DNA from: Candidatus Riflebacteria bacterium HGW-Riflebacteria-1
Lineage (GTDB): Bacteria > Muiribacteriota > Ozemobacteria > Ozemobacterales > Ozemobacteraceae
Length of the DNA: 64,000 nt
NCBI GenBank assembly: GCA_002839445.1
Contig: PGYB01000006.1
Span: 1 to 64,000 of the forward strand
Direction: 5' to 3'
The notes under the pieces were generated by a model, which was not told where the DNA came from, did no database searches, and was given only the letters and a program-made list of their open reading frames with translations. Shown piece after piece: positions 374-21,824 of this stretch. A program made the translations under genes and the position numbers. How positions within the stretch are numbered: position 1 is the stretch's first letter; each line of letters opens with the position of its first letter.

Positions 374-2302
374 TCAGCTGATGACAGGGCTGCGATCGTT
401 GCGCTCAATCGTTATTAGATTAAACTGAGTTTCCTGATTGAAGTAGCGAAATGACTCTGTGGCGTCATTCTCAGCCAGCTTTGCTAAAGGCAGTTTCGGA
501 CCTATGATATGAAGACGTTGATGATCTGGTTCGACGCTGCACTCATTTTTGACGCCTTCGATCTCGATTTCCCATCTGGAGCTGGCGAGCTCATCTATGT
601 TAAAGGGCGCTAGAGAAGAAGTCAGTATCGTCAGCCGCGGCTGAAAAAAGCCATTTTCATCGATGAGATTCGAAGTAAAGCCGTTCAAAAAGAGTCTCAG
701 ATCAGCCTGACAGCGGCCCTGATGATCTGGTCGCGGAATTCTGTCGCAGGCTTCGATAATCAGCTCTATCAACTGAGAAAACTCAGCAATACTGACTTTT
801 TCTGCCGTGAGATGCTGCGTAAGGGCAACGAGAAAATCGTTTCCCGGGAGACAGTTCATATAGGTGCGTTCTTCATTCACAATGAACGCGCGCTGTACCA
901 GTTTGCACCAGTCCTGCGGGTGAGCCTGTTTCCAGGAAGTCAGCAGGCGATCATACTCTGAGATGAACTTCAGCGCCTCGTTATCAAGAGCCTGTAAATG
1001 CTGGTCTGACGCGACAACATAGTGCTTTTTCAGCGCGCGCTCGATACTTTCCGGCATGCCGCTGGCCGAGCTTTCGATCATTTGCCCATGTGGATTGCGC
1101 AGCAGGTTAAGCGCGAGTTGCAACTCTACTTCGCCAGAACTCCGTAGAATCGGAAACAGGCGCATGAATCTCGAAAAATCATACAGGCTGATACTTGAGT
1201 TCTCCGCTTCCCATGGCGCAGTTGCTTTAAAGTTGGGATACATCATCATTGATAGACGTTCAAAGTCAGTCACAATTTCATGGTAAGAATCTACTGGTAA
1301 AGCTTGCCTGTCTGCCTCTGCGCCGGCACTAATTCCGGTCAAATCGAGAAACCTCTGTTCAAGCTGCTTTCTGCGTGCTTCATCGAACTGATGGCACGCC
1401 TCGCGGTAAGACAGGCAGTCAGTATTGATAGTGTGATTTACCAATGCTTTCAGCAGTTTTTTCTGGCCAGAGCCTTCGAGACCGAAAAAATTGCTGAGCC
1501 AGTTTGGCCGGTAAGACCATTGTGGGGCGCGCCCGCGCAAGGCAAACACTGTGTCATAGTCAATCAGATGACCGTCAATTGAGACGTTGCCGGCAGACCA
1601 GCAGCCGTGCAGAATACGCTCAATGAACTTCTCGGCATCCTGCCGGCCAAGGCTGCGCGCAATTTGTCGCAATCGATCGGCCTCGACCGGTTCATTCTTT
1701 TGAAAAAGGTGGGTCGGGCGATCGAGTTCGCCACCTTTATCGATTCTCACAATAATACCGCCAGGGTATCTGCCTTCGCGCCACGGAACTTCGACATCAT
1801 TGACCGGATTGATAACTGCAAGAACAGGCGAAGTGCCGGTGCGCAGGTTAGTGTGTAATACGTTAGAGCAGATTGCCTCCCAGAGAGCGCTTACCAGGTC
1901 GAGGTTGCCATTGGAGTGATTGCGGTCTTTCGATATGGCGAGAACGGTTTTGCCAAGCCCCTTGAGATTAAAACATTCCCCATAGTATGCGGCGCGCCCT
2001 GAACCAAGATTATCGTTTAAAGACATGTTCATCGGGTCGGCCTGCCGGTCGACATAGACCATTAAAGGTTTTGCACCGGGAATGCCGAGGCTCTGATCGA
2101 AAGTCAGCAGGAGATGCTTTTCGACAAACTCCTTTGCCTCGTCAGCCGTCATCGCTTTGCCGTAAGCATTTTCAAGCAGTCCCGATCTGGCAAACACGAC
2201 GTGGCATTGACCTGGATCGACCGGAAAGGCTGCCATGGCAACGAAAGTCGCTTCCCCAAGCCTTTTGCAGGCTGCTGGCAATACTCCGGCCGGTTCTTTC
2301 AT
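374..2302 (-). CDS. SelO/YdiU-like (UPF0061) protein adenylyltransferase/kinase-fold protein, 642 aa. Tentative.
   Basis: ATG start. The segment NLGSGRAAYYGE...LKGLGKT...NGNLDLVSALWEAICSNVLHTNLRTGTSPVLAV resembles the SelO LGDGRA/LKGAG/DGRAVLRS...EAMH block. About 150 aa longer than E. coli SelO. Confidence 0.4.
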   Translation of the reverse strand: MKEPAGVLPAACKRLGEATFVAMAAFPVDPGQCHVVFARSGLLENAYGKAMTADEAKEFVEKHLLLTFDQSLGIPGAKPLMVYVDRQADPMNMSLNDNLGSGRAAYYGECFNLKGLGKTVLAISKDRNHSNGNLDLVSALWEAICSNVLHTNLRTGTSPVLAVINPVNDVEVPWREGRYPGGIIVRIDKGGELDRPTHLFQKNEPVEADRLRQIARSLGRQDAEKFIERILHGCWSAGNVSIDGHLIDYDTVFALRGRAPQWSYRPNWLSNFFGLEGSGQKKLLKALVNHTINTDCLSYREACHQFDEARRKQLEQRFLDLTGISAGAEADRQALPVDSYHEIVTDFERLSMMMYPNFKATAPWEAENSSISLYDFSRFMRLFPILRSSGEVELQLALNLLRNPHGQMIESSASGMPESIERALKKHYVVASDQHLQALDNEALKFISEYDRLLTSWKQAHPQDWCKLVQRAFIVNEERTYMNCLPGNDFLVALTQHLTAEKVSIAEFSQLIELIIEACDRIPRPDHQGRCQADLRLFLNGFTSNLIDENGFFQPRLTILTSSLAPFNIDELASSRWEIEIEGVKNECSVEPDHQRLHIIGPKLPLAKLAENDATESFRYFNQETQFNLITIERNDRSPVIS

Positions 2303-2456
2303 ATTATTCTGTTATTCCATCATTCAGATTAACTAAAGATACCCGGAATATTCGATCCTGTAAATTCTTGACTTCATTCTGTACAGATAAGTAGAATGGC
2401 GGCGTGTTGGGTTGCTTGAATAATCAGAGTTTTAACTTATAAGGAGTAGAGAGAAA

Positions 2457-3206
2457 ATGAAGCGATTTTTTGGATTGTTGTTATCTGTAGCTCTTCTGAT
2501 AGCGGTTTCTGCGGTTGCCGGTCCTTCCGGAACTGAAATTGGCAAATGGACCGATTGGGTGCGGGCGGACAAGCTCGACCTCGAATACCGCGTACGCTGT
2601 AACGGTCTTGGAACAACTCCCAACGCGTATATGTGGGACGTTGAAGTTATAAACAAAGGGGCCGATATCGCGAAGTTTGGCGTTAACCTGACTCCAACCG
2701 ACATGGCCACAGAACCGACAAAGGGTTGGATGACCTGGCCGATCGGTGGAAACAGATGGCACAAATTCGTAGGCTTTCGCAGCGAAGCCGCCCCTGGTCA
2801 GAGGGTGAAGGTCTGGCTCAAGAATCTGTCTTCAGAAAAGCAGAATGTCGCAACCGGTCATCTCGCCGCCGGCAAGCTTGATTCGGTAGACGGAACAGTT
2901 TTCAATGCCTGCAACATGGCCTGGAAGGTTGGCAAAGCCGATCTCGACTGGAACCAGACCCAGGAATGGATAAAGAGTCTCGGCCTCGGCTGGCGCTCAC
3001 CGACAAAGAACGAGCTGGTCATGCTGTTCAAAGAAGTCGGTCAGAAAAGCCCGATTGGCCAGGATTATGTCTGGGCGGAACCTAAAGATGAACATTCTGC
3101 CTGGCATTTCAGTTTCTATTATCGCGAAGTGCGCTGGTCATACTTTGACGACCATAGTCGCTATGGCCGTGGCGTTGCGGTTCGTCCAATTACTGATCGT
3201 TATTAA
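2457..3206 (+). CDS. Secreted DUF1566 (Lcl C-terminal domain) protein, 249 aa.
   Basis: N-terminal signal peptide MKRFFGLLLSVALLIAVSAVAG. C-terminal WRSPTKNELVMLF...YVWAEP...AWHFSFYYREV...GVAVRPI matches the DUF1566 WRLPT..EL pattern. RBS GGAGTAGAGAG lies upstream. Confidence 0.55.
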   Translation: MKRFFGLLLSVALLIAVSAVAGPSGTEIGKWTDWVRADKLDLEYRVRCNGLGTTPNAYMWDVEVINKGADIAKFGVNLTPTDMATEPTKGWMTWPIGGNRWHKFVGFRSEAAPGQRVKVWLKNLSSEKQNVATGHLAAGKLDSVDGTVFNACNMAWKVGKADLDWNQTQEWIKSLGLGWRSPTKNELVMLFKEVGQKSPIGQDYVWAEPKDEHSAWHFSFYYREVRWSYFDDHSRYGRGVAVRPITDRY

Positions 3207-3227: not shown

Positions 3228-4646
3228 ATGGCAAGGTTGCTGATTGTTTCGCCGCCGCTGCATTTTGAGCAGCACCTGCGACGCAGTTTCCAGCCGCCAT
3301 TAAATCTGCTTTACCTCTACGCCTATATCAGTTCTCGCGGGCATGAGGTTGAGTTGCTTGAATGTGCCTCGGTTGACGAGACAGTCGCGGCGATTATCGA
3401 CAGATCACCCGACTTTGTCGGTATTCCTCTCTATTATGCCTCGCTTGAAAACACCTTCGCGATCGTAACCAGAACCCGCCAGCGCTCACCTGATATAAGG
3501 ATGATCGCTGGCGGGCCCTGTCTAACCATGGAACCCGAGCGAATGATACGCGAAGGCGGTTTTGATTTTGGAGTGTTGGGTGAAGGGGAAGAGACGCTGC
3601 ATGATCTGCTGTCGTCGGCGCCAAACGAAGAGGCCTGGTCATCCATCAAAGGCCTGGTTTTTATGCGTGATGGTAAGGCGATTGTTAATCCGCTTCGGCC
3701 ACCAATTGCCAGTCTTGACGCGTTACCATTTCTCGATTTTTCTGTGGTCGACAATGATTATTACTTTTCTTTTCAACAAAAGATGGGGATTCCCCCGACC
3801 GTTTTTCTGAATTCTTCGCGCGGCTGCTCATTTCGCTGCAGTTATTGCTGCACGCCAGTGCTCTGGCCTGGCCCGGTGCGACGATATTCGCCGCAACGCA
3901 TGATCGATGAAATCCGCTTTCAGCTCGAACGCTTTCCCGGTGCAGAAATCGGGTTCTGCGATGATTCATTCTTTTCTGACCGCAACTGGCTGAAAGAGTT
4001 TCTGAGACTGGTTAAGCCACTTTCGATCAAATTTCAATGCATTGGTCGCGCCGATCATCTTAATCCGGCGGTAATCGGCGAACTTGTCGATTCCGGTTTA
4101 ACCTACATCGCCTTCGGGGTCGAGACCGGAAACTCCTCACGCCAGACGCGCCTGCATAAAAATCTCGATCTGGCGAAGCTTGTCGCTACTATGAAAGAAT
4201 TGTCCAGATACCAGGTCAAGACCAAATGTTTTTTCATGCTGGGCTTTCCTGATGAAACCATCGAGGAAATAGCCGAAACCATTAACCTGGCGGTTACGTT
4301 AAAACGGCTCGGCATGAACTTATTCAGTATTTTTCCGGTTACTTTATACCCTGGCACCGAGCTTGCCAGACAGTTTCCAACCAGTCACTTTCAATGTGGG
4401 CTGGATGCGCATCTCCCAGAGATTATTCGCGACCATCTCGAAATCAGCCAGGCTGACCAGGAAAGGCTTGACAGTCGCTTCAATGCGCTGCTTACCCAGA
4501 GACAGATGGTCGAGGTCGTCAGCTTCGCCTGGGAGATGATAGAAAAAGCCGAAACAGTTTCCGTCGACGAACTGCAGCATCTAATAAACAGAACTGAGCC
4601 ACAGAGCAGTGCCCCGGTTGTCACCGGCCCGCACCAGGAGAAATAA
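3228..4646 (+). CDS. B12-binding domain radical SAM protein (class B rSAM), 472 aa.
   Basis: N-terminal Rossmann-like B12-binding region (LLIVSPP...NLLYLYAYISSRGHEV). The radical SAM motif CSFRCSYCC lies about 200 aa in. Paralogous to 5882-7342. The ATG at 3228 follows a TTG. Confidence 0.8.
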   Translation: MARLLIVSPPLHFEQHLRRSFQPPLNLLYLYAYISSRGHEVELLECASVDETVAAIIDRSPDFVGIPLYYASLENTFAIVTRTRQRSPDIRMIAGGPCLTMEPERMIREGGFDFGVLGEGEETLHDLLSSAPNEEAWSSIKGLVFMRDGKAIVNPLRPPIASLDALPFLDFSVVDNDYYFSFQQKMGIPPTVFLNSSRGCSFRCSYCCTPVLWPGPVRRYSPQRMIDEIRFQLERFPGAEIGFCDDSFFSDRNWLKEFLRLVKPLSIKFQCIGRADHLNPAVIGELVDSGLTYIAFGVETGNSSRQTRLHKNLDLAKLVATMKELSRYQVKTKCFFMLGFPDETIEEIAETINLAVTLKRLGMNLFSIFPVTLYPGTELARQFPTSHFQCGLDAHLPEIIRDHLEISQADQERLDSRFNALLTQRQMVEVVSFAWEMIEKAETVSVDELQHLINRTEPQSSAPVVTGPHQEK

Positions 4647-4647
4647 T

Positions 4648-5895
4648 ATGGTTACAACCGCCAATGTGCGAAACATTCGCTTTGACAACGCCGATCCTCG
4701 TGAACCAAGAAGCGTCAACCTTTACTTTGACCACTACCGTGGTGAACCTATTTACCGGGCCGTAGCCTATCTGGCGAATTCTGGCTGCGAGTGGTCACTA
4801 AAGACCGGCGGCTGCACAATGTGCGGAACAAAGAATTCTGCCCTGCGCCGGCCGATTTCCGACGACGAGTTCTTCGCGCAGTTTGCCATAATCCGAAAGT
4901 GTGTCGAGGAATTCAACGCTGCGCTCGACACACCGGTAAAGTCGCTGCACATCTACAACGACGGGTTTTTCTTTAATGACAACGAGATCTCGCCGCGTGC
5001 CCGAGAAGCGGTTTTTGAAATGGCGTGCGAACTCAACATGTGCAAACTGGTTATTGAAACCAACGGCCTCGATATCGTTCGCGACAACCGATCGACCGAT
5101 TACCTTGGCAAGGCCGTCAAAAGCCTCGGAAAAACCGAATTCGAGATAACACTCGGCATCGAGTCGGCAAACCCGCTTGTGCGAGCTCTCTACAACAAGC
5201 CGGATTCTATCGATGACGTCAAAAACAGCCTCGATATTATTCGCAGCAAAGGCGCGATTGCCAAAGGCTATGTTCTGGTCAAAGGCCCGATGATGACTGA
5301 AGCTGAGGCTTATGAGGACTGTGTAAACACTATTCGCACTTTGAAGCAGTGGAGCAATGGTGGACGTTTCAGGGTTGAATTCCAGCCAGTATGCCTGTTA
5401 CCCAACACTCTGCACGAATACCTGATTTCGCTGAATCGGAACGATCCATATTTCTGGGAACCGCCGCTTTTAAGCACGCTTTTTCGCATACTCGCCAACT
5501 TCCCCGATATGAGCGAAGATCTTTACACTGCCCTGTTTGCCAGAATTGATGAAGATTCGCCATGGGAGTTCTGGCAGAACCGGCCACACGATGATCCAGA
5601 AACGACCTACAGGCTCTATTTAAAGCTCGTCGAATACTACCTGCATCGCAGACATGATTCGATAACTTCTGCCCTGCAGCTGGCCAACGAGTCTTTGTGG
5701 CAACAGAGAATTGCCCGCAAGATTCCACAACCTCTTGAAGAGCGGGTCAGGCTGGTCAAAAAGCTGCTTGCGCAAAGCCGAAAGAGTAATATGCAACTGA
5801 GTGATTATCTGAAGACTCATCTTGAGCCAGGAAGCGATTTTTTTTCGAGCTGCGAAAAACACCTGAGCAGCGTTAATCCTGATGACTCAGCCTGA
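4648..5895 (+). CDS. Radical-SAM-like protein with non-canonical CX8CX2C motif, 415 aa.
   Basis: Strong RBS (CAGGAGAAATAATATG). The cysteine motif is GCEWSLKTGGCTMCG. Downstream lie a Gly-rich HIYNDGFFFND segment (GGE-like) and LVIETNG (the TNG ribose motif of radical SAM barrels). Overlaps both neighbours, which suggests translational coupling. Confidence 0.4.
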   Translation: MVTTANVRNIRFDNADPREPRSVNLYFDHYRGEPIYRAVAYLANSGCEWSLKTGGCTMCGTKNSALRRPISDDEFFAQFAIIRKCVEEFNAALDTPVKSLHIYNDGFFFNDNEISPRAREAVFEMACELNMCKLVIETNGLDIVRDNRSTDYLGKAVKSLGKTEFEITLGIESANPLVRALYNKPDSIDDVKNSLDIIRSKGAIAKGYVLVKGPMMTEAEAYEDCVNTIRTLKQWSNGGRFRVEFQPVCLLPNTLHEYLISLNRNDPYFWEPPLLSTLFRILANFPDMSEDLYTALFARIDEDSPWEFWQNRPHDDPETTYRLYLKLVEYYLHRRHDSITSALQLANESLWQQRIARKIPQPLEERVRLVKKLLAQSRKSNMQLSDYLKTHLEPGSDFFSSCEKHLSSVNPDDSA

Positions 5896-7342
5896 CATAT
5901 TGTTAATCGCGCCGCCACTGCTTTGGGAAGGCGAATCGCGGCCAGAAATGAAACAGCCGCTGAATCTACTGTATCTTGCCAGCTGGCTCAACCGGCAAGG
6001 TTTGCAGGCACAGGTTCTTGACGCGGCTTTGGCGAGCCTTTCGCTTGGCGAGGCTCTGCAGGCTGTTGAAGCGTTCAGGCCGCGTTTTATTGGCGTGCCA
6101 TTTTATCAGGCAACTAGAGAAACCGTTTTGCAGCTTTGCCGCGCGATACGCGCGCGCTTTCCTGAGATCTGGCTGGTAGCAGGCGGACCTTTGGTGACAA
6201 CATCTCCCGAAAGTCTTCTGGGGTTTACCGATGTTGACATCTGCGTGATCGGCGAAGGTGAAGTAACGCTTGAAGAAATTTTGCGCAGCAATCTGCCGAG
6301 CCCGAGAACTGACGACTCAGACTGCTCCTGTCTTTCCACCATACCCGGGCTTGGCTTTGTCGATGGCAAAAGCTCGGTTATCACGCCGTTACGGCCACCA
6401 ATCGATGATCTTGACAGCATTCCGTTCGTAGATTTTGAATTGATAGATATTCAGCGCTACTTTGCCTATCACGCTTCAATTGAGATGTCGAACTGGCTGT
6501 TTCTGACGACTTCGCGAGGCTGCCATGCACGTTGCACCTTCTGCGCCACACCGGTTCTCTGGCCAGATGGCATGCGCCGGCAATCGGTGCCACGACTGCT
6601 CGCCGAAATTACTTACCAGCGCAAGCTCTATCCGTCATCACAATTCGGGTTTATGGATGATTCCTTTTTTTCCGACAAAGCATGGTTGCGTGAGTTTTTT
6701 GAAGGTATCAGTTCGATGAAGGTGAAATACTGCTGCATTGGCCGGGCCGACCATCTTTGCGAAGAAGATGTGATTGGACTGGCTCACAGTGGCTGCATTT
6801 ATGTTGCGCTGGGTATCGAAACCGGCAACCAGGCCAGACAGCGGACAATTGGCAAGCATCTCGATCTTAACCGGGTCAGAGCGTCGATTCGATTACTCGC
6901 TGAATATGACATTTTCAGCAAGGGTTTCTTCATGCTGGGTTTTCCTGACGAAACTCCAGAAGAAATGCTGGAAACAATCAATTTTGCAGTAGAGCTGAAG
7001 AACCTCGGAATGGGTGAGTTTAATTTCTTTCCGGTGTCGATTTACCCTGGAACCGAACTTGCGGCACGCTGTGCAAAGACAGCCTGTGTGTCGACCGTCT
7101 ATCAGCAATCCGCCAAACCCGGTTCGCAAGATGGCAAAGTTGATCAGAGCGCCTCCGATATCGCAGAAACCAAGCTGATGCGCTATGCAAATATTCCTGA
7201 TGCCGATATAAATGACTATTTCAGCGCAACCCAGATTCTGAATATCGTAAAATTTGCCTACCGCCAGGCAGAATCGGGCCAGCCCGTCACTCTTGAAGCA
7301 CTGACAACGGCGGCGCAGATTTCCCCGCAACAGGCCTTGTGA
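5882..7342 (+). CDS. B12-binding domain radical SAM protein, 486 aa.
   Basis: Same architecture as 3228-4646 (LLIAPP...NLLYLASWLNRQG, then CHARCTFCATP as the CxxxCxxC motif). Overlaps the upstream gene by 14 bp. Confidence 0.8.
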   Translation: MTQPDILLIAPPLLWEGESRPEMKQPLNLLYLASWLNRQGLQAQVLDAALASLSLGEALQAVEAFRPRFIGVPFYQATRETVLQLCRAIRARFPEIWLVAGGPLVTTSPESLLGFTDVDICVIGEGEVTLEEILRSNLPSPRTDDSDCSCLSTIPGLGFVDGKSSVITPLRPPIDDLDSIPFVDFELIDIQRYFAYHASIEMSNWLFLTTSRGCHARCTFCATPVLWPDGMRRQSVPRLLAEITYQRKLYPSSQFGFMDDSFFSDKAWLREFFEGISSMKVKYCCIGRADHLCEEDVIGLAHSGCIYVALGIETGNQARQRTIGKHLDLNRVRASIRLLAEYDIFSKGFFMLGFPDETPEEMLETINFAVELKNLGMGEFNFFPVSIYPGTELAARCAKTACVSTVYQQSAKPGSQDGKVDQSASDIAETKLMRYANIPDADINDYFSATQILNIVKFAYRQAESGQPVTLEALTTAAQISPQQAL

Positions 7343-7453
7343 GAGCGTTAATCAATTCCTGCGATATCGCTGCTTTTTTGAGTCGGTGGGGGGTACAGAA
7401 TCGGGTTGCTTAGAGGTATAATTTGAAAATACTGTCGCTTTGAGGAGTTATAA

Positions 7454-8914
7454 ATGACTAAGAGCAATAACTTTTTTTATAAATCGGTTCGGGTGGCTGC
7501 GGCCTGTGCTATTGCGATTTCAACGCTGTTTTCGCCGGTTGAAGCCAGGGTCAGAAACTTTGCCTCGGCAAAGGATGTGCAAAGTCTGAAGTTCTTAAGC
7601 GCCAACCACATGCCGGTCAAGGTGCTGGTTGTTTACTCTCCAAACCAGAAAAACCAGAATTTTGTTATCACACTGATGAATATTGTGGCTGATATGCATG
7701 ATAAGGGCCTGGTAAAGCAGGAAGACGCCTTCAAGGTGCATGTTATTCCCGGTTGGGAAATGCAGGAAGCCGATTACGCATTTATTCGCGAAAAAGTAGG
7801 CGCTGAGCGGGTTAAGAAGTATGTTGAATTTAACAACGTCTATACCACAACCGATATGTGGATGCAGGACTGGGGCGAAGTTGGCGTGGTTAAGCTGAAA
7901 AGTGAAAAGAAGCCGCAGACCGTGGTTTTTGACTCAAATCGTGGTCGTGACAATGCTGAATTACCGGGAATTCTCGCGAGTTTCTGGAATAGTTACCTGC
8001 TGAAAAACCCCTCGACACATTTTTCCGGTGGCGATTACGGCGGAAATATCGAGGTTACCCCCGACAACATTTTATTGATCGGCAACACTTCTACTCCTGA
8101 ATTGCGTGGCTTTCTGGAGAAAAATGGTTATAAGAATCGCATGGCGGTTCTCGAAACCGACTGGTTGCATGTTGGCCATGTTGATGAATACATTTCGGTT
8201 TGTCCAAATGCCAAGGCTGCTCGTGGCTATACGCTGATTAAAGCTAACCCGAGACTTGCTCTCAGGTTGATTAAAGATTCTTCCCTTGCAGATTTGCGGG
8301 CAATTCCGCTTAAAGATTACCGCGATGCGATGATCGAGGTGCGCAAATACCTTCTTAAAGCCGAAGTTAATCGAGCCGCCCAAAAAAAACGCAAGAATAA
8401 TGAAGCTTTGCCTGAAGATCAGAAATTTGGAGTTGCCGTGTTGAATTACCTCGAATTATCGGAAACTACCAGTGAATCAGGTATGGAACTGGCAACCGGC
8501 CACATGGTAAGAGGTTCTGAAGTTGAAGAATTTATCAAACTTAACCTTACTCTTGCCAATCTGATTGATGCCAACCTCAAAAAGGCCTGCGAAAAGATTT
8601 CTGAAGTGCGCAAGGAAAAGGAAGGCAAGCTTCATTCGATTATCTCGTTTCCGGCGCTGTTTCGCGCCATGTATGGCGGCAAACATATTGCATACATTCC
8701 TGGCAGCGTTAATCAGCTGATCTTGAACAACCAGCTTATCGTTCCGGATCCTAAAATAGAAATCATGCGGAAGTATATTGCCCGCACACTCGGCAAGATG
8801 GGGCTCCAGGCTAATTTTGTCGACTCGCTGCCTTATCATAATCTCCAGGGCCAGATTCATTGCGGCACCAACGTTTTCAGACACCCCAACAAGTATTTTG
8901 TAAAGCCTCGGTAA
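7454..8914 (+). CDS. Secreted guanidino-group modifying enzyme, porphyromonas-type peptidylarginine deiminase / agmatine deiminase-like, 486 aa.
   Basis: Signal peptide (VRVAAACAIAISTLFSPVEA). WMQDWGEV matches the WxRDxGP block. FSGGDYGGNIEVTPDNILLIGNTS matches EGGSI..DG.GTLL. The C-terminal GQIHCGTNV matches the catalytic Cys motif GGIHCITQQ of the PAD_porph/AguA family. RBS GAGGAG. Confidence 0.55.
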   Translation: MTKSNNFFYKSVRVAAACAIAISTLFSPVEARVRNFASAKDVQSLKFLSANHMPVKVLVVYSPNQKNQNFVITLMNIVADMHDKGLVKQEDAFKVHVIPGWEMQEADYAFIREKVGAERVKKYVEFNNVYTTTDMWMQDWGEVGVVKLKSEKKPQTVVFDSNRGRDNAELPGILASFWNSYLLKNPSTHFSGGDYGGNIEVTPDNILLIGNTSTPELRGFLEKNGYKNRMAVLETDWLHVGHVDEYISVCPNAKAARGYTLIKANPRLALRLIKDSSLADLRAIPLKDYRDAMIEVRKYLLKAEVNRAAQKKRKNNEALPEDQKFGVAVLNYLELSETTSESGMELATGHMVRGSEVEEFIKLNLTLANLIDANLKKACEKISEVRKEKEGKLHSIISFPALFRAMYGGKHIAYIPGSVNQLILNNQLIVPDPKIEIMRKYIARTLGKMGLQANFVDSLPYHNLQGQIHCGTNVFRHPNKYFVKPR

Positions 8915-8990: not shown

Positions 8991-9180
8991 AATTGCTGGT
9001 CCTTTGTCAACATTGAATAGATGAATTCACGGTCGTTGCGGGGAGGACTTTTGTCGCTACGCTCCTCGCGAAGACCATGGATGGTCAAGTGCCGGTGAGC
9101 ATCAGGATTGAAGCGAACCGACCAATGACGGTTTGCAAACCTGCTGTTCAAGTGTGACAGTCGACTAGTCGGGCGAAGAA
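8975..9180 (-). repeat. Conserved noncoding element of about 200 nt, copy A. Inverted relative to copy B at 29700-29900.
   Basis: The 55-nt core GTCATTGGTCGGTTCGCTTCAATCCTGATGCTCACCGGCACTTGACCATCC (revcomp of 9071-9125) is identical to 29756-29810 except one base. Flanks are 60-75% similar, with an indel. Short ORFs over the two copies (8963-9151 and 29744-29977) share only the core peptide and then diverge, so the conservation is at DNA/RNA level. Confidence 0.6.
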
Positions 9181-20135: not shown

Positions 20136-21824
20136 TTATATTTTACGTGACGTAATGCGATCTTCGTCACTGTTTACGACAACTTCATTTTCAAGAACTT
20201 CTACTAATACCGGCTCGTAGTCTTGATGAAATACTTCAACAAGCCCCTTGGAAGGTTCTTGATTATCACCAACACAGCAACCTTCAAGTATTAACCCTTT
20301 ATCTACAATTTCAACAAGACCAAGCTCAGGATTGCATTCAGTTTCAGGCTTAATAACGCCCTTCTCAACGATACAAGCAATACCACGATCGCCACAAACG
20401 AGACTATCAGCAATAAGCTGTAATTTTGCCTCAATAGACATGTATTCTAACTCCTGAATTAAACAATCTTGGCCATTAAGACCGTCAACACCGTCTTGAC
20501 CATCAATACCAGGCAAACCGGTATCACCTTTATCGCCTTTAACACCTTGTAAACCTTGAACACCCTGTATACCTTGTATTCCTTGTGAGCCAGTATCACC
20601 TTTTTCGCCCTGAATACCCTGTATACCTTGTGGACCTTGAGCACCTTCTTGACCTTCCCACCCTACGCCTGGCTCGCCCTGTATACCTTGTATTCCTTGT
20701 GCGCCTTGTGAACCAGTTGCACCAGTATCACCCTTTACACCTTGGATACCCTGAACTCCCTGATCGCCAGTATCACCTTTATCACCCTTATCACCTTTAT
20801 CACCCTTATCACCTTTCTCACCCTTTACACCCTCAGTTGCACCAGAACGTATATTGAGAATCAAAGAATAAAGATTCTGTATCTGAACGCGCAAAGCATC
20901 ACAATCACAATCATTATCATTAGGTGGTGGTGGCTGAACACCTCCATCACGAGGAGTATCATCAGCATCAGCATCACAACAAACATCACCAGTATCTGAA
21001 AAGCCTGTAACCGACATATAGAGCGTTGTAAAGCGCTCAATATAGACATTTGTAAGACTTATACCAATACAAGATATCTCAGCAAAATCTTTACACTCAG
21101 AACAACTGGCAGTTGCAAAATTAACATCCTCAGAAAAACCATTACCAGCACCGATTATCAAACCGCCCATACCACCTGCAGGAATGGTATATTTACGTGC
21201 ACCTATCTGAACAACACCGTTTTTACTACTGCCTGATAAAGCTCTAAAAGAAACTCTATCGATAGTTTTCCATGCAGACAAAATACCATTAAGAGCATTT
21301 TGATCTGATAACCAATAATCACCAGCAGAAGGAATAACTATATCCTGAAAAAAAGTAACTTGTTTATTAAGAATATCAGTGCCAGTGATAGCTATACGGT
21401 AATTATCGGTATAAAACCGACTATCAGCACAAGTATTGAAAGCTGAAAACGCAAGAGTAATACTCGGATTAGATTTGTTCGGCTGACCAAAATCTACCCA
21501 ATTGACATCATCAAGAACCTTTGCAGATGTTATAGGATTAGAAAAATTGCTTGTAACATAATAAGCATATAAATCAGGCACACAAGAAGAAAATAAAGCC
21601 CAGTTTGTTACAGATGCAGAGTTAAGCTTAAGCTCAAACTTAGTAACACTCTTTAGGCGACTCATTGAAGCACTACCTTGTGCTGATTGAATAGCGCAAT
21701 ATCCTATTGAATTATCGTAATAAACACGCAATAGCAGCCATGAAGGATATGCAGTAACAACAGGAGGATTTGCAGCTTCTGTTATACGCACATCAAATTT
21801 AAGTTCTTTGAAAGAAATGGCCAT
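20136..21824 (-). CDS. Collagen-like triple-helix repeat protein of 562 aa: N-terminal globular domain, about 110 aa of GXY repeats, and a C-terminal domain.
   Basis: There are uninterrupted Gly-X-Y triplets (GEKGDKGDKGDKGDKGDTGDQGVQGIQGVKGDTGATGSQGAQGIQGIQGEPG...GLPGIDGQDGVDGLNGQ). The layout resembles phage tail-fibre or BclA-like collagenous proteins. TAATG overlap with the upstream peptidase gene. Confidence 0.8.
   Translation of the reverse strand: MAISFKELKFDVRITEAANPPVVTAYPSWLLLRVYYDNSIGYCAIQSAQGSASMSRLKSVTKFELKLNSASVTNWALFSSCVPDLYAYYVTSNFSNPITSAKVLDDVNWVDFGQPNKSNPSITLAFSAFNTCADSRFYTDNYRIAITGTDILNKQVTFFQDIVIPSAGDYWLSDQNALNGILSAWKTIDRVSFRALSGSSKNGVVQIGARKYTIPAGGMGGLIIGAGNGFSEDVNFATASCSECKDFAEISCIGISLTNVYIERFTTLYMSVTGFSDTGDVCCDADADDTPRDGGVQPPPPNDNDCDCDALRVQIQNLYSLILNIRSGATEGVKGEKGDKGDKGDKGDKGDTGDQGVQGIQGVKGDTGATGSQGAQGIQGIQGEPGVGWEGQEGAQGPQGIQGIQGEKGDTGSQGIQGIQGVQGLQGVKGDKGDTGLPGIDGQDGVDGLNGQDCLIQELEYMSIEAKLQLIADSLVCGDRGIACIVEKGVIKPETECNPELGLVEIVDKGLILEGCCVGDNQEPSKGLVEVFHQDYEPVLVEVLENEVVVNSDEDRITSRKI
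20771..20822. repeat. Tandem 18-bp (9+9) repeat inside the collagen-like gene.
   Basis: TCACCCTTATCACCTTTA is repeated about 3 times, encoding (GDK)n. Confidence 0.7.

Follow-up and report, generated by a model that had tools for sequence, protein, structure and literature searches.

What do three radical S-adenosylmethionine (radical-SAM) enzymes do together when their genes are kept side by side throughout a bacterial phylum? The question is raised by a 64,000-nucleotide stretch of DNA from Candidatus Riflebacteria bacterium HGW-Riflebacteria-1 (positions 1 to 64,000 of contig PGYB01000006.1; hereafter the window), in which two genes for B12-binding radical-SAM enzymes, here termed A and B, enclose a third radical-SAM gene, termed mid. 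The locus is an orphan radical-SAM operon with an unprecedented enzyme combination. Exact-protein look-up identified the window as part of a 204-kb metagenome contig, and the overwhelming majority of the named homologs of its proteins come from metagenome-assembled genomes (MAGs) of Candidatus Riflebacteria / Ozemobacteraceae. The listing of open reading frames (ORFs) gives five co-directional genes at 2457-3206, 3228-4646, 4648-5895, 5882-7342 and 7454-8914, and the four flagged in a preliminary description of the locus, made from the letters alone (A, mid, B and a deiminase gene), are present at the positions assigned to them there. The core of that description, an operon of two paralogous class-B radical-SAM enzymes around a non-canonical CX8CX2C radical-SAM protein, is confirmed by Pfam, motifs and synteny. 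Its wording of three overlapping genes is correct for mid and B, which overlap by 14 nt, but not for A and mid, which are separated by 1 nt (ATG starts, as in the source-contig annotation).

The proteins encoded by A (3228-4646, plus strand, 472 aa) and B (5882-7342, plus strand, 486 aa) are shown, at the level of sequence, to be cobalamin-domain radical-SAM paralogs of class B. Both clear the Pfam cutoffs for the B12-binding domain (70.3 bits for A and 57.2 bits for B, cutoff 32.1) and for Radical_SAM (73 and 59.1 bits, cutoff 29.5), and each has a canonical CX3CX2C cluster motif, CSFRCSYC at nt 3825-3848 in A and CHARCTFC at nt 6521-6544 in B. The two are 38-40% identical to one another and form separate orthologous clades in every locus, with orthologs of A (57-93% identical) and of B (52-90% identical) in all Riflebacteria loci. 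The N-terminal B12-binding domain, the radical-SAM core and the CX3CX2C motif are common to A, B and the characterised class-B enzymes (MgmA, TokK, CysS and the Fom3/GenK-type methylases; AprD4, HpnJ and BchE). A and B differ from these in two respects: their own family, which counts at least 789 proteins at E<1e-20, is uncharacterised, and they form a fixed paralog pair around a RaSEA-like enzyme. Neither reaches any NCBIfam equivalog (best scores of 113-114 bits against cutoffs of 251-750), HpnJ, BchE, PhpK, ApyD, BzaD, MgmA and HpnR being among the characterised equivalogs whose cutoffs are failed. The closest sequence matches in the PDB are AprD4, MgmA, TokK and CysS (1e-16 to 1e-4). AprD4, the best of these, is an example of those class-B enzymes that carry a B12-binding domain without using cobalamin. 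Two more tandem B12-binding radical-SAM paralogs, C and D (13845-15191 and 15191-16555, both minus strand), lie 5 kb downstream of the deiminase gene; they share no more than about 20-25% identity with A and B. In L022, an unrelated locus, a gene resembling D (35% identity) is separated by about 8 kb from a member of the A/B family.

The protein encoded by mid (4648-5895, plus strand, 415 aa) is shown to be a radical-SAM enzyme from the lineage that includes RaSEA, queuine lyase and Elp3. Within this lineage it belongs to a narrow and divergent side branch of RaSEA, the archaeal enzyme of archaeosine formation. Its cysteine motif, CEWSLKTGGCTMC (CX8CX2C, nt 4786-4824), is common to the whole aligned family, archaeal RaSEA included, and the three cysteines, G106 of 'YNDG' and E137 of 'ETNG' are invariant across that alignment. 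The sole NCBIfam match is TIGR01210 (RaSEA) at 1.5e-28 and 99.9 bits, below the curated cutoff of 212.15; in the same comparison a relative from the mid clade (P0026) scores 110.9, intermediates 170-240 and genuine RaSEA (P0034, P0078) 335-337 bits. The preliminary guess of a TIGR01210/Elp3-like protein was right as to the best match, if not as to the cutoff, and the radical-SAM fold, on which that description had made its case depend, is strongly supported (model pLDDT 91, all structural neighbours being radical-SAM enzymes). An exhaustive HMMER search of 1.84 billion cluster representatives returned 990 relatives of mid, only two of which score above about 120 bits, the representative of the clade itself (702 bits) and one other (181 bits), so that the clade is very narrow.

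With RaSEA the mid protein shares the CX8CX2C motif, the SAM-binding positions G106, E137, E166, G170, E172 and K184 and the radical-SAM core fold. It differs in being bacterial, in having another C-terminal domain and in its two flanking B12-binding radical-SAM genes, A/B-like genes having been seen near mid relatives in 0 of the 71 metagenome loci that hold only distant (25-35% identical), RaSEA-like ones. The C-terminal ~150 residues are clade-specific, with DPYxWEPP and RPHDD motifs, and in the Riflebacteria clade cysteine-free sequence replaces the RaSEA-type CxxC...CxC cysteines that are present in P0032-P0034. Queuine lyase (PDB 6p78), which cleaves a C-N bond by radical-SAM chemistry in queuine salvage, is a further comparison: only about 100 residues align with mid at the sequence level, mid is about 185 residues longer and has a helical C-terminal domain, and no queuosine genes are conserved in the locus. 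Elsewhere, the distant TIGR01210-like radical-SAM gene P0033 (L019, 1885-3847) overlaps an upstream ATP-grasp (TupA-like) gene and is followed downstream by genes for glutamyl-tRNA reductase, GSA aminotransferase, ALAD, UbiD/UbiX and a B12-binding radical-SAM enzyme; the RaSEA lineage may have a further, as yet uncharacterised, role in this cluster.

The strongest evidence that A, mid and B belong together is their conservation. Scanning one genome per GTDB species for the pattern yielded 13 loci, 12 from Riflebacteria and one from an archaeon (Nanoarchaeia), and a metagenome scan added nine further close contigs to the 71 distant loci already mentioned. All three genes are present in 12 of the 12 Riflebacteria loci, and in 11 of them the order A-mid-B is kept with gaps or overlaps of no more than about 50 nt; L016 is rearranged, with B inverted and a gene for a major facilitator superfamily (MFS) transporter between mid and A. 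The nine close metagenome contigs all have the same order as far as their length allows. The preliminary description had staked its case on the gene set being syntenic elsewhere, which these 12 genome and nine metagenome loci establish. Genes outside the unit differ in almost every locus, and the retention of the unit is thus not mere residual colinearity. Within the phylum the mid proteins share 61-97% identity, and their conservation exceeds that of the neighbouring genes. A-mid-B is shown to be a fixed, tightly spaced unit in Riflebacteria, is probably translationally coupled, and is firmly shown to be restricted to the phylum and vertically inherited. Two candidates for a triad outside Riflebacteria were rejected: the 51% identical mid homolog in the Nanoarchaeia MAG stands alone, and the genes around P0073, the 181-bit relative, are unrelated to the triad. 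The gene for P0027, which at 47% identity is the most divergent of the non-archaeal mid relatives, comes third in a row, after a B12-binding radical-SAM gene and a gene for an 879-aa HEAT-containing protein. A SulP/STAS anion transporter gene lies directly beside B in three Riflebacteria loci (L009 12654-14369, L011 12645-14330 and L012 9323-11068), and another (L021 8174-9868), on a 5.2-Mb contig, neighbours a lone B-like paralog that has 51% identity to B; the transporters are 36% identical.

The operon has a partner that the preliminary description had missed. A divergently oriented gene for a 642-aa protein (374-2302, minus strand) is a real conserved partner of the operon: among the 12 genome loci from Riflebacteria it adjoins the triad in 10, the two remaining genomes have homologs on other contigs, and the family is found almost only in Riflebacteria. 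Searches with phmmer, with nine family members and with a family profile gave no match in Pfam, NCBIfam or PDB sequences. The AF2 model, built from a 28-sequence alignment (pLDDT 88.3, pTM 0.91), has as its top nine Foldseek PDB matches exclusively SelO/YdiU (E 1.5e-10 to 3e-9, prob 1.0, TMt ~0.6, ~15% identity), ordinary kinases coming next in the list at E>4e-3; because the top matches are all of this kind, the 642-aa protein is, by its predicted structure, a highly divergent SelO-fold (SelO/YdiU pseudokinase-like) protein. An extra beta domain is seen at the C-terminus (residues ~531-622), and the protein is predicted to be cytoplasmic. Compared with SelO/YdiU it has about 160 extra residues, and it lacks any sequence match to Pfam UPF0061/SelO or to the SelO entries of the PDB. 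The motif HGxWSxGNxS(x6)D (H232, G233, N239, D248), invariant in the family, resembles the SelO active-site motif, into which N239 and D248 may fit; Gly here probably takes the place of the Asp that precedes the metal-binding Asn in SelO. SelO enzymes AMPylate or UMPylate proteins, and NAD+ hydrolysis by SelO has recently been reported. The gene is tandem-duplicated in some Riflebacteria (L013 941-5383, minus strand; also HQM08_19040/19045), and some copies of the protein (P0054, P0058) have N-terminal extensions of 150-340 residues.

The position directly upstream of A is alternately filled, by the gene of a secreted DUF1566-like (lectin-like) protein or by that of an MFS transporter. In the window it is a 249-aa protein (2457-3206, plus strand) whose gene ends 21 nt before A and whose C-terminal ~100 aa match Pfam Lcl_C (PF07603) weakly (E=9e-4, 20 bits against a cutoff of 34.9, profile positions 14-114 of 117). 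The secreted DUF1566 protein that had been described as preceding the triad is secreted and directly upstream, and its family match is weak. All orthologs have Sec-type signal peptides. In the window, and in 10 of the 12 genome loci from Riflebacteria, the gene immediately before A encodes the DUF1566-like domain, whose identity among Ozemobacteraceae-like loci (67-90%) is comparable to that of the enzymes. In L010 and L014 this place is taken by an MFS gene of ~425 codons, and in L016 such a gene is the one between mid and A; the MFS protein matches the NTP/NDP exchanger family TIGR00769 weakly (1.3e-6). In the window the ATG at 2457 is preceded, at a distance of 11 nt, by the ribosome-binding site AAGGAG, and the divergent intergenic region upstream of the operon has a sigma-70-like promoter candidate at 2368-2397 (plus strand, TTGACT-18-TAGAAT), which in a consensus scan agrees with 10 of 12 consensus positions and is a consensus match only. 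Legionella Lcl joins collagen repeats with an Lcl_C/DUF1566 domain; the window also encodes a 562-aa collagen triple-helix repeat protein (20136-21824, minus strand; Pfam Collagen, 1.9e-19).

On what, then, do the enzymes act? We tentatively favour a single substrate of non-ribosomal origin that is common to all three radical-SAM enzymes. It would most likely be a membrane-crossing small molecule, for which weak hints suggest a nucleobase- or nucleoside-like nature. Taken separately, a small-molecule substrate of any kind is an evenly balanced proposition, and a nucleobase- or nucleoside-like one specifically is doubtful. A small molecule is favoured because transporters recur in or beside the unit and no peptide gene is found. 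Here the preliminary description, which had seen no precursor-peptide ORF, proved accurate: of the ORFs of 20-110 aa within 3.5 kb of 14 triads, none was shared between any two loci (E<=1e-3). The hint of a nucleobase comes from the RaSEA/queuine-lyase ancestry of mid, the nucleotide-transporter-like MFS protein, the nucleotidyl-transferase fold of the 642-aa partner and the tgt/yhhQ genes adjoining this locus. In such a pathway, A and B would use a 5'-deoxyadenosyl radical and methylcobalamin to methylate two different unactivated carbons, or would otherwise form C-C bonds; mid would employ its 5'-deoxyadenosyl radical for C-N or C-C scission or for rearrangement, as RaSEA and queuine lyase do; the SelO-like protein might nucleotidylate the substrate or regulate the enzymes; and the MFS protein, weakly similar to NTP/NDP exchangers, could import the substrate or export the product.

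Several points weigh against a shared small-molecule substrate. No enzyme of the cluster is close to a characterised one, and every chemical step is assigned by family. Phylum-wide vertical conservation would equally fit housekeeping modification of RNA, protein or lipid. The MFS gene occurs in only 3 of the 12 loci, and the nucleotide-transporter match of its product amounts to 27.6 bits against a cutoff of 387; a proposed homology between this small MFS protein and the MFS+HEAT protein found beside an outgroup A/B-family gene had to be given up (hhalign prob 4%, not significant). The secreted, lectin-like first gene of most loci is left unexplained by a cytoplasmic small-molecule pathway. 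Solitary A/B-family paralogs have no common neighbours except the SulP/STAS transporter, hence no consistent context. Finally, a conserved link to tgt/yhhQ (a 7-deazaguanine cluster) was rejected and these genes retained as no more than a weak hint, the adjacency being confined to this contig and to L005, a 96% relative.

The genes in question lie just outside the window. About 0.2-3 kb upstream of its start (L002 12498-14528, minus strand) a 676-aa protein is encoded that unites bacterial Tgt (Pfam TGT, 480 bits) with a Methyltransf_30 domain of MnmC type, an unusual fusion, and a gene for a Vut_1/YhhQ-type transporter (L002 14792-15502, plus strand) divergently adjoins it. The boldest proposal is a new bacterial route for making or salvaging a modified heterocycle of purine type (resembling a 7-deazapurine, a pterin or a nucleoside), free or in tRNA, by combining a radical C-N lyase akin to RaSEA and queuine lyase, two cobalamin-dependent C-methylases and a SelO-fold nucleotidyl transferase. 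We consider it improbable as stated; if true, it would give the RaSEA lineage its first bacterial role and a SelO-like enzyme its first biosynthetic one.

Among the alternatives, a Riflebacteria-specific hypermodification of tRNA or rRNA survives best, even if it is unlikely. In this case the target of mid, as of RaSEA, Elp3 or MnmL, would be a nucleobase that the RNA already contains, such as a 7-deazaguanine put in place by Tgt, and methyl groups would be added by A and B. All characterised members of TIGR01210, TIGR01212, Elp3 and queuine lyase act on modified nucleobases (PMC11298593). The phylum-wide vertical conservation of the unit under strong purifying selection would suit such a role, as would the tgt-MnmC fusion and yhhQ next to the locus in this genome, TcdA and RtcR upstream in L010, and ProRS beside A in L016. 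Yet the score of mid lies far below the RaSEA cutoff (99.9 against 212 bits) and the C-terminal CxxC...CxC cysteines are missing from it. RaSEA is active only in complex with ArcS (PMC11298593), and an ArcS-like partner was found in none of the loci; 10 of the 12 Riflebacteria loci lack a TGT/ArcS-like gene up to a distance of 10 kb, and the one TGT close by is the bacterial-type Tgt fusion of this contig and L005, so that adjacency to tgt is not conserved. Nor does RNA modification explain the MFS gene inside the operon or the secreted first gene. To our knowledge, no class-B radical-SAM enzyme acts on RNA, which likewise counts against this alternative. Protein charge and isoelectric point, considered as a test of RNA binding, were uninformative, genuine RaSEA being acidic as well.

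More distant relatives of A and B point in another direction, that of membrane lipids. Two outgroup members of the A/B family, from different and unrelated lineages, occur in a module with a SPASM radical-SAM enzyme and a glycerol-1-phosphate-dehydrogenase-like protein, the partners being 33-35% identical between the lineages. One of the outgroup genes, P0314, is adjoined by genes for the MFS+HEAT protein, an HAE3/MMPL exporter of lipid type, the SPASM radical-SAM enzyme and the dehydrogenase-like protein, and the top NCBIfam match of this exporter-linked enzyme is TIGR04072, 'lipid biosynthesis B12-binding/radical SAM'. Another outgroup member lies beside a dCache/HAMP protein and a second B12-binding radical-SAM enzyme. 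The substrate could accordingly be the tail of a membrane lipid, to be methylated, cyclised or cross-linked as by archaeal Grs, Gmm, Gms and Tes or by hopanoid HpnP/R/J. The pairing of a B12-binding radical-SAM enzyme with a second radical-SAM enzyme, as seen here, is common in lipid radical-SAM clusters (PMC11214058), and vertical conservation would suit a core trait of the cell envelope. We nonetheless regard lipid modification as a rather improbable function of the Riflebacteria unit: its partner radical-SAM enzyme is RaSEA-like and not of the SPASM type, no lipid-biosynthesis gene is conserved beside the triad, and the scores against lipid-family models are far below cutoff.

The deiminase gene bears on the last alternative, modification of a protein. 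The preliminary description had included a secreted PPAD/agmatine-deiminase-like enzyme with an IHCGTN motif; the signal peptide and HCGTN stand, and the family is instead PF03068, that of the vertebrate-type protein-arginine deiminases (PADs). On sequence grounds the gene at 7454-8914 (plus strand), within the span first flagged and outside the conserved unit, encodes a genuine PAD-type enzyme and is an independent neighbour of the operon. It matches PF03068 at 3e-26 and 92.8 bits (cutoff 25) and human PAD4 at 1.4e-21, its WMQD, GHVDE and HCGTN motifs aligning to QWMQD, GHVDEF and VHCGTNV; HCGTN (nt 8858-8872) contains the predicted catalytic Cys. PF03068 was the only Pfam match at E<=0.01, with no match to PAD_porph (PF04371), and all PDB matches are vertebrate PAD1-4. 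The catalytic domain and the three motifs are shared with the vertebrate/cyanobacterial-type PADs, from which the protein differs in consisting of the catalytic domain alone behind a Sec-like N-terminal signal peptide and in being encoded beside a radical-SAM operon to which it has no link in other genomes. It is an unrelated neighbour because it adjoins the triad only here and in the one 96% relative, L005, where a ZIP transporter gene intervenes between B and PAD; the 10 remaining genome loci from Riflebacteria have no PAD gene up to a distance of 10 kb. Its GC content is 46-48%, compared with 50-52% in the triad, and the 111-nt spacer between B and PAD contains a TATAAT box. An intrinsic terminator in that spacer found no support, the fold being no more stable than that of shuffled sequences (z=+1.4), and separate transcription of PAD is unproven.

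The tailoring cassette of the preliminary description is therefore real in its radical-SAM set, which lacks a precursor peptide, and does not include the deiminase; arginine deimination as a further step fails on the restriction of PAD to two loci and on the secretion of PAD as opposed to the cytoplasmic location of the radical-SAM enzymes. A protein or peptide modification cassette, whose substrate would be the secreted DUF1566-like protein before its Sec export, with PAD optionally citrullinating it here, has in its favour the placement of that protein's gene and its enzyme-like conservation, the protein glutamine C-methylase MgmA as second-best PDB sequence match of A and B, and the protein-modifying activity of SelO enzymes, but seems distinctly unlikely: in L010, L014 and L016 the triad is kept although the DUF1566-like gene is missing, because of which the encoded protein cannot be the sole substrate, no conserved short ORF, peptide recognition element of the kind known for ribosomally synthesised modified peptides, protease or leader-type peptide is seen, and the secreted PAD is adjacent in two near-identical loci only. 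An analogy would be the anaerobic sulfatase-maturating enzymes, which modify sulfatases.

Other genes around PAD complete the picture of the locus. A gingipain-like Peptidase_C25 with a propeptide is encoded about 5 kb upstream of the window start and about 12 kb from PAD (L002 17100-18872, plus strand); Porphyromonas pairs its gingipains with PPAD, which is of an unrelated family, and in L006 a C25 gene lies near the triad and no PAD gene is present. Downstream of PAD, the gene for a 479-aa protein without family match (9165-10604, minus strand) is paired with one for a DUF1858 / hybrid-cluster-protein-associated redox disulfide protein (10609-10809, minus strand), a pair conserved in L005 only, and 11273-13777 (plus strand) encodes an 834-aa bacterial homolog of the major vault protein with MVP_shoulder (7e-30) and a Vault_3 repeat, likewise found in L005.

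Lastly, the locus has importance as a concrete example of an enzyme set that is conserved in Riflebacteria and has no characterised counterpart. The phylum is reported to exceed all others in its load of unknown gene families that define a lineage (PMC10849945), and our literature search found no paper that links Riflebacteria to radical-SAM or B12-binding enzymes or that mentions TIGR01210. Three elements are brought together that had not been seen in combination before, namely a bacterial offshoot of RaSEA, a fixed pair of B12-binding radical-SAM paralogs and a SelO-like protein recognised only by structure prediction. The value of the finding is limited for now, orphan radical-SAM clusters being numerous and no substrate being nameable. 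Identification of the substrate would assign a function to a family of at least 789 B12-binding radical-SAM proteins and would extend the chemistry of RaSEA and queuine lyase beyond tRNA and queuine, and it might reveal a metabolite or modification specific to the phylum.

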